Origin: an uncultured bacterium
GTDB taxonomy: Bacteria > Patescibacteriota > Minisyncoccia > Phycocordibacterales > GWA1-40-21
Reading direction: 5' to 3'
Assembly (NCBI GenBank): GCA_903850545.1
Contig: CAINLW010000037.1
Location: 14,813-38,812, forward strand
Length of the DNA stretch: 24,000 bases
Both the position numbers and the translations under genes were made by a program. The notes beneath the pieces were generated by a model. The model made no database searches, was not told where the DNA came from, and was given only the letters and a program-made list of their open reading frames with translations. Shown piece after piece: positions 3,836 through 6,141 of this stretch; position 1 is the stretch's first letter; each line of letters starts with the position of its first letter.

Positions 3836-4633
3836 TTATCGAATAACTGGATAATCTTCCTCTGGGTCTCTAAATCTCCACAAAATCGATCCCCATGTCC
3901 AAATCACAAACAACTTAATCCAACCAATTTTTTCAAAACGTCTTACTGAAGTCAAAACGGCATCAGTATCAAAATAAAAAAACTTTCCATAGACGAGACA
4001 ATCTTTAATGAATTGTAAATCTTCTGCTAAGCGTAATTTTTCATTAAATTTAACCTTTTTCATTAAAGATGTTTTTGCTATCTGAATAGAATATGAGACT
4101 TTTGTATATTTGTGGACCAAATCATACATTCCCATCCACATTCTCGCCTGCCAACTTTTATTTTCAAGAGGTTTTACTGAAGTTGTCCCAACAGTTAAGT
4201 TTTTATCACTATTTTTCTGTAAAAATAAATCTAAATCTTTTAAAAAGTTCGACTCGAGAATCGTATCTGCATCAAGAAAAACAATCCAATCACTTAAATT
4301 AGAAATTTGTTTTATACCAAAATTTTTCGCTTTTGAAACTCCCTTTTCACTTTTTAATACTCTAATATTTCCACCTTCAAATTTTTTGACAATTTCAAAA
4401 GTTTTGTCAGTAGAACCATTTTCAACTACAACAACCTCGAATTTTTCAATCGGATAATTAAGATTGCTGATTTTTGTAAGCGTATTTTCAATATATTTTT
4501 CTTCATTATGCGCTGGAATTACTACTGAAAAAAAGAGTTGTTTTTGATCCATTTGATTTTCTAAATTATTTAGAAAGTTTAGCATAATTTGGCTTTTATG
4601 TCTTTCAAATACGACTGGCCGGAATTTCTCCAC
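3836..4633 (-). CDS. Family 2 glycosyltransferase (start uncertain)
   Basis: FSVVIPAHNEEKYI and VFLDADT motifs. The ORF-track start at 4633 is a GTG. In-frame ATGs at 4585 and 4552 (MDQKQLFFSVVIP) are more typical distances from the GT2 N-terminal strand. Confidence 0.8.
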   Translation of the reverse strand: MEKFRPVVFERHKSQIMLNFLNNLENQMDQKQLFFSVVIPAHNEEKYIENTLTKISNLNYPIEKFEVVVVENGSTDKTFEIVKKFEGGNIRVLKSEKGVSKAKNFGIKQISNLSDWIVFLDADTILESNFLKDLDLFLQKNSDKNLTVGTTSVKPLENKSWQARMWMGMYDLVHKYTKVSYSIQIAKTSLMKKVKFNEKLRLAEDLQFIKDCLVYGKFFYFDTDAVLTSVRRFEKIGWIKLFVIWTWGSILWRFRDPEEDYPVIR

Positions 4634-4720
4634 CTACCGTGGTGGGTACTTTTCCTCCTCGCCCTCGCTCGTATGGAAAAGTCTTTCGAATCCCGACACA
4701 AACAAAGCAGTTTGTTTGCT

Positions 4721-4784
4721 CCAGCCACGCAAAAATAAAGAAACACTGAAATTTTTCAGTGTTTCTTTATTTTTGCGCGGCTGG
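4721..4784. terminator. 64-nt near-perfect palindrome whose core is a bidirectional intrinsic terminator after tRNA-Asp
   Basis: The sequence ccagccacgcaaaaataaagaaacactga / tcagtgtttctttatttttgcgcggctgg pairs 4721 with 4784 inward, with one mismatch (4727/4778). It has A/T runs on both sides. The last 9 nt of the right arm (4776-4784) are the 3' acceptor strand of tRNA-Asp. Confidence 0.7.
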
Positions 4785-5071
4785 CCGGATTCGAACCGGT
4801 GACCTCTCCCGTGCATATTCCCCAATATTTTCATATCGGCATGGACTATATCTTCGCCATTGTTCGTCCGTTAAGACGAATTTAGGTGCTCCGGTATCTA
4901 GTCTCTACGGCGCCCCCTTAAAATAAATTAAGAGGTTCCCTCGGTATTCGCATATCTTTATAAAAAAGACTTAGCCTTCACCGATATCCCAGAGAGTTTC
5001 AAACTACCTTTCGGCAGCAAGCTGCACGTTCGTCTACAGGGGAGCGCTCTAACCAGCTGAGCTACAACCGC
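4776..5071 (-). tRNA. tRNA-Asp (anticodon GUC) interrupted by a group I intron in the anticodon loop
   Basis: 5' exon 5071->5036 reads GCGGTTG TA GCTC AGCTGGTTA GAGC G CTCCC CTGT. 3' exon 4813->4776 reads CAC GGGAG AGGTC ACCGG TTCGAAT CCGGC CAGCCGC G. Joined, they give a 74-nt cloverleaf with loop CUGUCAC, a 5-nt variable loop and G73. CCA is not encoded. Confidence 0.88.
4814..5035 (-). ncRNA. Group I intron (tRNA-type, IC3-like), 222 nt, no ORF
   Basis: The 5' exon ends in U and the intron ends in G (AATATG). The minus strand contains GTAGAGACTAGA...CACCTAA, matching the J6/7-P7-P3 core I remember from the Azoarcus tRNA-Ile intron. P7 is GACTA/TAGTC, P3 is GGTG/CACC and P8 is TTCGTC-ttaacg-GACGAA. 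GAAA tetraloop hairpins are GCC-GAAA-GGT and CCGATAT-GAAA-ATATTGG. Confidence 0.85.
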
Positions 5072-5739
5072 AATTTTATAAATTTCTCAAAAACATCCTT
5101 CTTTCTTTTGAGAAACAAACCTCCTGATTTAAGGTTATCTACATTATACATAAAATTATATAATTTCAAAGAGCTAATTACACTATATGTTAATCTGAAG
5201 TAATCACCCTGTCCTTTTCGAATAGAACCTTTCATTCCTTTTATTCTTTCTAATCTGTCATTTAAAGCTTCTAAAAAAACAAAGGAACAAGATGTAAAAA
5301 CGCACGAAATGGTATAAGATTTAATTAATCTATTTTTATGGTTAAGACCGACCCAAACATTCCCATCACCATCAAAATACCCGCGAACAAAATCAGAAAA
5401 ATACTTTTCCGGTATATTTGGAACTGCTAAACTTTTTGTTTTATTCTTATCGAAACCGAGTTTTCTCAAATCATCACACATTTCAAAGCTCCCTATCTGT
5501 AAACGATAAAGATTTTTATTATTACCCATACCAATTTTTTCACCTATTTTATGTTCAGATTCAATGCAATCTTTAATTTTACAAAGTATCTCCTTGTCAG
5601 TAATTTCTATGCACCAAAAATTTGCACCTCGTTTGTTTAATGTAATATAACCGTCAGCAGCAAAAAAACCCAAGATATAAGCCATTTGTGTCGTCCATTT
5701 TTTGAAAAAATCTTTATTTATTTTTTTAAATATCGGCAA
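5062..5739 (-). CDS. Double-motif LAGLIDADG homing endonuclease, free-standing between two tRNA genes (start uncertain)
   Basis: Two LAGLIDADG motifs (YILGFFAADGYI and FVRGYFDGDGNV). The ORF-track start (5871) lies inside the upstream tRNA, so it is not credible. Candidate starts are TTG at 5739 or ATG at 5685. The stop TAG (5062-5064) is positions 8-10 of tRNA-Asp. Confidence 0.85.
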   Translation of the reverse strand: MPIFKKINKDFFKKWTTQMAYILGFFAADGYITLNKRGANFWCIEITDKEILCKIKDCIESEHKIGEKIGMGNNKNLYRLQIGSFEMCDDLRKLGFDKNKTKSLAVPNIPEKYFSDFVRGYFDGDGNVWVGLNHKNRLIKSYTISCVFTSCSFVFLEALNDRLERIKGMKGSIRKGQGDYFRLTYSVISSLKLYNFMYNVDNLKSGGLFLKRKKDVFEKFIKLRL

Positions 5740-5814
5740 GATTATATTGTAGCACGTGACAGTGTTATATACTAACCAAAATATATAAAAATTTAGATGA
5801 AAAACAAATTTTTG

Positions 5815-5885
5815 TGTCGATGAATGGAATCGGACCATTGTCTGAGGCTTATGAGTCCCCCGTTCTACCATTGAACTACACCGAC
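5815..5885 (-). tRNA. tRNA with CAU anticodon (elongator Met or Ile2), 71 nt
   Basis: GTCGGTG TA GTTC AATGGTA GAAC G GGGGA CTCATAA GCCTC AGAC AATGG TCCGATT CCATT CATCGAC A. The acceptor has one G-U pair. Positions 31-39 are an A/G mismatch. The T loop TCCGATT is non-canonical. Confidence 0.7.
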
Positions 5886-6067: not shown

Positions 6068-6141
6068 TGGTTGCGGGGGCCCGAATTGCACGGACGTCTC
6101 TAGGTTATGAGCCTAGCGAATTACTGCTACTCTACCCCGCT
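6068..6141 (-). tRNA. Initiator-type tRNA-fMet (CAU), CCA encoded
   Basis: AGCGGGG TA GAGT AGCAGTA ATTC G CTAGG CTCATAA CCTAG AGAC GTCCG TGCAATT CGGGC CCCCGCA A CCA. The acceptor GCGGGG/CCCCGCAACCA with a mismatched 1:72 pair mirrors E. coli tRNA-fMet. G30-C40 and G31-C39 are present. The D loop lacks GG and the T loop is TGCAATT. Confidence 0.75.

Follow-up and report, generated by a model that had tools for sequence, protein, structure and literature searches.

A candidate mobile LAGLIDADG homing gene docked on the 5′ end of an intron-bearing tRNA-Asp gene in a patescibacterial chromosome

Nearly all that is known of free-standing homing endonucleases and of trans homing comes from work on T-even phages and cyanophages. 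In phage T4, the endonuclease MobE brings about trans homing of the nrdB intron by co-conversion, a mobility that was shown by crosses (Wilson and Edgell, 2009, PMC2790892), and SegB is a free-standing homing endonuclease encoded within a tRNA cluster (Brok-Volchanskaya et al., 2008, PMC2330249). In cyanophages a free-standing endonuclease lies beside the intron of psbA, which has no open reading frame (ORF), and the two are described as partners in collaborative homing (reviewed in PMC3984707). Among bacteria of the Candidate Phyla Radiation (CPR), introns have been noted in 16S rRNA genes, and tRNAs are often interrupted by group I introns (PMC8172020). Here we describe a cellular LAGLIDADG case, located in a 24,000-nt stretch (hereafter the window) of contig CAINLW010000037.1 from an uncultured, ultra-small bacterium of the Patescibacteriota, in which a free-standing LAGLIDADG endonuclease gene is placed between a tRNA-Met(CAU) gene and a tRNA-Asp(GUC) gene that itself carries a group I intron lacking an ORF. 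We favor the reading, to which we assign a probability of roughly 0.55, that this is a mobile homing gene whose home is the spacer 5′ of tRNA-Asp, that it has spread by intron-less homing, and that the intron is co-converted along with it.

On the minus strand of the window the order is tRNA-Met(CAU), a second tRNA-Met(CAU), a 74-nt spacer, the endonuclease ORF ending at 5062, and tRNA-Asp(GUC) (Table 1). The final codons of the ORF, AAA TTG CGG TTG TAG, run into the tRNA, and the gene stands outside any intron or intein, the intron beginning 27 nt past the stop codon and 36 nt past the tRNA 5′ end. The initial annotation of this DNA had described a gene wedged between a CAU tRNA and tRNA-Asp with its stop codon inside the latter, and its sequence claims on the window all hold after coordinates, overlap and motifs were rechecked: ARAGORN places tRNA-Met at 5814..5885 and tRNA-Asp at 5071..4775, and the TAG at 5062-5064 coincides with tRNA positions 8-10 (U8-A9-G10).

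A protein search returned 2267 homologues, and relatives are found in at least 486 species genomes. From these, the 80 best endonuclease loci were taken as a close-locus set, and beside them we examined 20 endonuclease loci from an even sample of the window's class, comprising 401 genomes from 283 genera, in which family membership was set at E≤1e-30. Almost all of these roughly 100 loci have tRNA-Met(CAT), the gene and tRNA-Asp(GTC) in this order on one strand, so that the tRNA-flanked arrangement recurs far beyond chance. Of the 71 close loci used for stop positions, 63 have the stop codon within tRNA-Asp; 45 of the 71 have the same -9 offset as the window, that is, a TAG formed by U8-A9-G10, and in other close loci the frame is shifted by one or two bases and the TAG is reached deeper in the D arm (offsets -14, -20 and -22). 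In the even class sample, the stop is inside tRNA-Asp in 13 of 20 loci and the remaining seven have their own stop 3-16 nt before the tRNA. The distance from tRNA-Met to the gene varies from 2 to 1309 nt (median spacer 82 nt); given the fixed position of the stop at tRNA-Asp and this variable distance to tRNA-Met, the junction with tRNA-Asp is the fixed side of the element.

The rule that the stop falls inside tRNA-Asp or at most 16 nt before it is broken by six loci with a duplicated tRNA 5′ fragment. In four of them (L003, L022, L039 and L041) the end of the gene is formed by an orphan copy of the tRNA-Asp 5′ end, with the complete tRNA-Asp 62-297 nt further on; in the other two (L065 and L073) the reading frame closes at a TAA of its own, after which come a shorter orphan fragment and, 76-111 nt further, the complete tRNA-Asp. 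Counting L190, which has such a fragment and no gene, the orphan copies in these seven loci consist of the first 12-36 nt of the tRNA, and the complete tRNA-Asp bears an intron in five carriers, the exceptions being L073 (intron-less) and L190. These fragments hint at illegitimate insertion next to intron-bearing recipients.

The gene is patchily distributed and its absence leaves recognizable empty sites. In the even sample the family is found in 26 of 401 genomes and 26 of 283 genera, and it is present in some members and absent from others within single genera. Ten empty alleles were compared from the window's order: nine have a same-strand tRNA-Met(CAT) upstream of tRNA-Asp and six have two, the Met-Asp spacer being 19-84 nt long in five and 150-514 nt in four, and several empty alleles elsewhere in the class have a Met-Asp spacer of 2-78 nt. 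This comparison of alleles shows the gene to be an insertion directly 5′ of tRNA-Asp within the Met-Asp spacer, and the 74-nt spacer of the window is probably a remnant of the original one. Decay is also seen, as the gene in G001 (locus L139) has been reduced to its first 24 codons and the last few codons before tRNA-Asp, five copies have internal stops, and the orphan tRNA-Asp 5′ fragment of G214 (the gene-less L190), which resembles the fragment at the gene end in L022, looks like a deletion scar.

Most copies have nevertheless been kept in good order. About 94% are intact, and pairwise dN/dS among homologues is 0.06-0.18, with dS above 1 and thus saturated, values that indicate strong purifying selection on the endonuclease gene. 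Patchy presence, empty sites, decayed copies and scars, together with a dN/dS that is nonetheless about 0.1, form a pattern that fits a mobile homing-endonuclease gene; gain, decay and loss combined with purifying selection are consistent with the life cycle of such genes and unlike a host housekeeping gene. An alternative is that the gene is a stranded relic, which entered the Met-Asp spacer once, early in the history of the class, was inherited vertically with frequent loss and is now immobile, the overlap with the tRNA being a product of genome compaction. Its position is indeed the same in all clades, divergence is deep with saturated dS, and some sister copies occur within one host family. 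However, an immobile selfish gene should decay, and the high proportion of intact copies and the low dN/dS contradict this expectation; moreover, the three other carriers in the window's order fall in three different parts of the endonuclease tree, all apart from the window copy, although some of the deep forks that separate them are weakly supported, and closely related endonuclease copies adjoin very different tRNA-Asp genes. We therefore regard the stranded relic as most unlikely.

The product is a two-domain LAGLIDADG protein. The initial annotation had recognized a double-motif protein of this family and had proposed a Pfam check, and both motifs are present, with a match to LAGLIDADG_3 (PF14528, E=4.6e-10). 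No variation is seen at residues D29, G30, D123, G124, D125 and G126 across 39 homologues of 58-69% identity, and the AlphaFold2 model (pLDDT 87.7, pTM 0.87) shows two repeats of helix, strands and helices. The top Foldseek matches are I-Tsp061I, I-AabMI, I-AniI, bI3 maturase, the I-OnuI family and I-SceI, with E values from 1e-10 to 1e-7 and TM scores of 0.6-0.68 (I-Tsp061I, I-AniI, I-OnuI, I-SceI), and a sequence search of the PDB gave a weak I-MsoI match alone, identity to any solved structure being low. Because both catalytic aspartates are invariant and the confident two-domain model resembles homing endonucleases and maturases, the free-standing protein is probably active.

The start of the gene had been left between two candidates, an ATG at 5871 inside the upstream tRNA and a TTG at 5739. 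The reading frame is open over 5062..5871, back into tRNA-Met. The homologues share a conserved N-terminus, MPIYKKVNKDFFKKW, which lines up with the stretch encoded after TTG 5739; a length of exactly 225 aa is common among them, and an in-frame stop often lies 3-30 nt upstream of the homologous start codon. Since the homologous N-termini and start codons align at TTG 5739, the gene is taken as 5062-5739, coding for 225 aa, and the ATG inside the tRNA was set aside. At the homologous position the start codon is ATG in 59 loci, GTG in 29 and TTG in the window alone (1 of 89), which may mean weaker translation of the window copy.

The interrupting element in tRNA-Asp is recognized as a group I intron, and its splicing is predicted. 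ARAGORN, with introns allowed, reports tRNA-Asp(GTC) at 5071..4775 (-) with a 222-nt intron after anticodon position 35, a gene that a default tRNA finder misses. Rfam Intron_gpI matches over the whole model with 35.7 bits and E=9e-8 in a 306-nt search, which is below the gathering score of 50, and a scan of 3 kb at E≤1 missed the intron, which was found only in the narrower search. The 5′ exon ends in CUGU and can pair with an internal guide GCAG, the U before the splice site standing opposite G; the terminal base of the intron is G, and the conserved P7 halves AGAGACTAG and GATATAGTCC are found in 35 aligned homologous introns. The intron match, the conserved P7 and the lack of an ORF inside bear out the earlier description of a group I intron in tRNA-Asp that has no ORF. 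Homologous introns occupy the anticodon loops of tRNA-Asn(GUU), Thr(UGU, GGU), Ser(UGA, GGA), Tyr(GUA), His(GUG), Leu(UAA, CAA) and Met(CAU), most of the other intron matches being in non-Asp tRNA genes of other class genomes (L113-L122, L153-L184), and the tRNA-Asp intron belongs to a family that colonizes tRNA anticodon loops throughout the class. The introns in other tRNAs are mostly about 170-270 nt long and some are 500-570 nt, these longer ones possibly holding an ORF; most are inserted after U in a YUGU-like loop.

Several further observations concern the tRNA-Asp genes. An unusual T arm, GTGGG-GTCAGCA-CCCAT, replaces the GTTCRANTC-type loop in L020, L021, L025, L076, L193 and L194, and a pattern scan requiring a TTC[AG]A T loop misses tRNA-Asp genes of this type. 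With introns allowed, ARAGORN makes no tRNA-Asp call in the intron-bearing L020 and L021 and calls the intron-less L025, L076, L193 and L194. Contigs from four lake-water DNA runs, possibly from other organisms, provide weak hints: breaks fall at the borders of the intron, exon 2 is joined straight to exon 1 in one loose end, and other ends diverge at the start codon of the gene or just upstream of tRNA-Asp.

The relation between gene and intron is central to how the element is understood. It had been proposed that comparison of related genomes would reveal whether the two are co-distributed, and this is the case, though not obligately, as all four combinations exist. Intron counts for the close set are based on the 72 loci in which tRNA-Asp is complete: the intron is present in 35, and 37 have an intron-less tRNA-Asp beside an intact gene. 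In the class sample, 5 of 21 carriers have the intron (16 of 21 are intron-less) compared with 2 of 380 non-carriers (Fisher p ~5e-6, a significance that this and the other Fisher tests of the gene-intron association overstate because the genomes are related by descent). The tRNA-Asp intron is thus enriched about 30-60 fold next to the gene; G235 and G227 have the tRNA-Asp intron without the endonuclease gene. On the endonuclease tree, intron state has changed at least 23 times, at least 7 of them on well-supported branches.

The initial annotation had connected this arrangement with collaborative or trans homing. In the collaborative model, the enzyme would cut uninterrupted tRNA-Asp at or near the intron site and carriers would be protected by the intron; a shield version would add protection by a small change in the D arm that destroys the site. 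The enrichment of the intron beside the gene is what this explanation would lead one to expect, and there are two phage precedents in which a free-standing endonuclease and an ORF-less intron share one site (PMC3984707). The D arm also appears to fit. The type found in exon 1 of the window, GCTCAGCTGGTTAGAGC, is that of 35 of the 43 intron-bearing alleles beside the gene, so that among carriers canonical and variant D arms are distributed 35/8 with the intron and 4/42 without it. In sister pairs the D arm shifts in the same direction as the intron in 3-4 of 7 and in the opposite direction in none.

The same alleles, however, contain numerous sites that such an enzyme should have destroyed. Around the insertion point, 11 of the 37 intron-less carriers match the spliced form of some intron-bearing allele over ±12 nt. 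L025, with an intact gene and no intron, has a tRNA-Asp identical throughout to the spliced tRNA-Asp of L020 and L021, and this one identical tRNA-Asp occurs with neither element in G148 (where the spacer is 19 nt), with the gene only in L025 and with both in L020 and L021. If carriers were shielded, uninterrupted tRNA-Asp with a canonical D arm should be close to absent among intron-less carriers, yet it is found in 4 of 46 (8.7%) as compared with 34 of 371 non-carriers (9.2%, p=1). Genomes that lack the gene often have variant D arms such as GTGGTGTAGCCTGGTTAACAC, which are therefore lineage types rather than escape mutations. The canonical D arm would track the intron simply because exon 1 lies between gene and intron and has to move whenever both do, and block transfer would account for this link with no need of shielding. 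In line with such transfer, a canonical-type tRNA-Asp is interrupted in 35 of 39 cases beside the gene and in 2 of 36 without it (p ~2e-14), and the exon-1 D arm shifts together with intron state across the endonuclease tree. From the many intron-less carriers, the identical uninterrupted sites and the absence of any depletion, it appears that the enzyme probably spares the intron insertion site. Of the earlier proposal, the association of gene and intron (5/21 against 2/380) is thus retained, and cutting of the intron site in intron-less tRNA-Asp finds no support in this comparative evidence, in view of the 37 of 72 intron-less loci; we regard collaborative homing with shielding as quite unlikely. 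Instead, the intron probably travels with the endonuclease gene as a passenger, rather than being its target.

Another possibility is that the protein has been domesticated, the host keeping it as a splicing cofactor for the tRNA-Asp intron or for some other RNA- or DNA-binding role, and that it is translated from its own target transcript. This would be compatible with long-lasting strong purifying selection, the small number of pseudogenes and the near confinement of the tRNA-Asp intron to gene-carrying genomes; the structural neighbors include the bifunctional endonuclease-maturase I-AniI as well as the bI3 maturase, and among bacteria Thermotoga has an intron served by a LAGLIDADG maturase (PMC3984707). 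On the other hand, a gene found in about 5% of class genomes and varying within genera does not behave as a host function would. At least half of the carriers lack an intron on which a splicing cofactor could act, homologous introns reside in other tRNAs of many genomes that lack the endonuclease family, and paralogous clades adjoin intron-less tRNA-Cys and tRNA-Leu genes. The catalytic aspartates, both invariant here, are often lost from dedicated maturases such as bI3. Taking the two sides together, a domesticated maturase seems very unlikely.

Under the favored reading of a mobile homing gene, the enzyme would act on genomes that lack the gene, cutting them at the empty Met-Asp junction or in the 5′ region of tRNA-Asp, its recognition site probably consisting of the end of the spacer and the conserved 5′ part of tRNA-Asp. 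Repair would then copy the gene in, the two conserved flanking tRNA genes serving as homology arms, also across species. A donor intron, together with the 36-bp exon 1, would be co-converted with the gene, that is, trans homing by hitch-hiking as in MobE and nrdB; co-conversion of this kind would leave the intron enriched beside the gene and yet not required there. The gene, having no stop codon of its own, would be transcribed with the tRNAs, and the message would run through pre-tRNA-Asp and the intron to a hairpin at 4721-4784. If RNase P cut at tRNA position 1, the stop codon would be lost and a non-stop message left, full-length enzyme would be produced only from transcripts translated before processing, and a potentially toxic nuclease would thereby be held at a low level. 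A ribosome terminating at U8-A9-G10 would have to unfold the acceptor and D stems.

The hairpin at 4721-4784, which also surfaced in the Rfam scan as a spurious match of the microRNA type, is a probable terminator of a Met-endonuclease-Asp transcription unit. The promoter and terminator scan listed no terminator-like site at this hairpin, and none between the endonuclease coding sequence and tRNA-Asp. Pairing of the tRNA-Asp 3′ end with the downstream sequence is not general, since at least 9 of 10 positions pair in 10 of 72 loci as compared with 5 in the shuffled control. In the promoter scan, promoter-like sites were fewer than in shuffles and none stood above chance near the spacer between tRNA-Met and the gene; one promoter-like site near the gene was discarded as evidence, as transcription from it would begin after the start codon. 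About 110 nt beyond the hairpin, in the region 4620-4790 of the window (minus strand) that spans both, there is a near-copy of the tRNA-Asp T stem and acceptor 3′ strand, GAAATTCCGGCCAGTCGT against CGAATCCGGCCAGCCGC, and a comparable near-copy in L020 (3615-3810) matches the odd T arm of that locus; such near-copies 3′ of tRNA-Asp may represent a decayed tRNA-Asp duplicate or a tRNA-like element.

Table 1. Features of the endonuclease locus in the window (positions counted from the first letter of the 24,000-nt stretch).
Feature	Position	Strand	Basis
tRNA-Met(CAU), farther upstream	6068..6141	-	tRNA finding
tRNA-Met(CAU), upstream neighbor, conserved left flank of the endonuclease gene	5814..5885	-	ARAGORN; Rfam tRNA 61.7 bits
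Spacer from tRNA-Met to endonuclease start, 74 nt	5740..5813	-	Sequence coordinates
Free-standing single-chain LAGLIDADG gene, 225 aa, TTG start 5737-5739, TAG stop 5062-5064	5062..5739	-	Pfam, homologues, AlphaFold2, Foldseek
First LAGLIDADG motif, LGFFAADGY, catalytic Asp29 at 5653-5655	5647..5673	-	
Second LAGLIDADG motif, RGYFDGDGN, catalytic Asp125 at 5365-5367	5359..5385	-	
Overlap of ORF and tRNA-Asp, 10 nt, G CGG TTG TAG = tRNA-Asp positions 1-10	5062..5071	-	
tRNA-Asp(GUC) exon 1: acceptor 5′ strand, D arm, anticodon stem and loop to U35	5036..5071	-	ARAGORN, introns allowed
Group I intron, 222 nt, ORF-less, in anticodon loop	4814..5035	-	ARAGORN with introns; Rfam Intron_gpI
tRNA-Asp exon 2 to discriminator G73 (ARAGORN end one base later, 4775)	4776..4813	-	
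Long hairpin directly 3′ of tRNA-Asp, its 5′ arm including the tRNA 3′ acceptor strand	4721..4784	-	Sequence inspection

Related genes stand next to other tRNAs. A separate clade of distant paralogues (34-40% identity) is found beside tRNA-Cys(GCA) and tRNA-Leu(UAA) (L103-L110), and the window genome itself has a second free-standing LAGLIDADG gene of 230 aa and about 30% identity (G000 contig C63:16293-16985; L002 1456-2148, minus strand), the stop of which ends 1 nt before tRNA-Leu(GAG), followed by tRNA-His(GUG). A bolder proposal, which we consider rather unlikely, is that the class hosts a radiation of free-standing LAGLIDADG genes docked on the 5′ ends of tRNA-Asp, Cys or Leu(GAG), which would cross species by means of tRNA homology arms, would be gated by a race between RNase P and translation and would act as vehicles that seed ORF-less group I introns and spread them from one tRNA gene to another. 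If true, this radiation would be a natural system showing the assembly of mobile introns from separate parts in cellular genomes.

Besides the relatedness of the genomes mentioned above, several points weigh against the reading of a mobile gene that carries the intron along. The independent-pairs test on the tree is underpowered, with 7 pairs on supported branches. The correlation between intron and endonuclease identity is weak (rho 0.26) and discordant pairs occur, for instance with 90% intron identity and 47% protein identity, from which it follows that the intron also moves, or persists, independently of the gene. The sequence just 5′ of tRNA-Asp is A/T-rich in empty and occupied alleles alike, which leaves the escape of occupied alleles from cutting unexplained. 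Sister endonuclease copies in two genomes of family f17 give some signal of vertical descent, and the closest pairs are old (dS >1), so that no recent transfer has been caught.

The locus has significance beyond the single window. It provides hundreds of natural alleles in four states, three of them on one identical tRNA-Asp, with which the empty junction versus the intron site as target, hitch-hiking of the intron, and the assembly of mobile introns from an endonuclease and a ribozyme can all be tested. A conserved stop inside a mature tRNA is a clean natural case of interference between tRNA processing and translation, and the family supplies many new LAGLIDADG scaffolds with putative tRNA-gene targets. 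In practice, the overlap and the presence of introns are why default tRNA finders fail to report tRNA-Asp, and other tRNAs, in these genomes.

Among the described systems, MobE of phage T4 is similar in that its free-standing endonuclease gene, which has no promoter of its own and needs upstream transcription, immediately precedes a gene whose group I intron is unable to move alone, and in that the intron is inherited within the conversion tract. MobE differs in being an HNH enzyme of a phage, with a protein-coding neighbor whose intron contains a defunct endonuclease ORF (I-TevIII) and with mobility that was demonstrated, whereas the present case involves a LAGLIDADG enzyme on a bacterial chromosome, a tRNA, an ORF-less intron and an ORF ending in the tRNA, mobility being deduced from the alleles. 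SegB likewise resides in a tRNA cluster, its site includes a conserved tRNA motif and its homing carries neighboring tRNA genes along; it is, however, a GIY-YIG enzyme of a phage with neither tRNA overlap nor intron, in contrast to the fixed junction with the 5′ end of one tRNA in cellular genomes seen here. The cyanophage psbA-intron endonuclease, which we take to be F-CphI of phage S-PM2, differs in another respect, since about half of the carriers here have an uninterrupted but otherwise identical site, contrary to the defining feature of collaborative homing. I-Tsp061I (PDB 2dch) and the CPR and archaeal rRNA-intron enzymes have the same fold in a two-domain single chain, and the CPR enzymes share the host group, but the rRNA-intron enzymes are encoded inside the intron that they mobilize, whereas the window gene is outside any intron or intein and abuts a tRNA. 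In our literature searches, no paper on LAGLIDADG genes that abut tRNAs in CPR bacteria came up. The present case differs from the known systems in the enzyme family, the setting in cellular chromosomes of Patescibacteria, the docking on one tRNA with a conserved internal stop, and the availability of hundreds of natural alleles.

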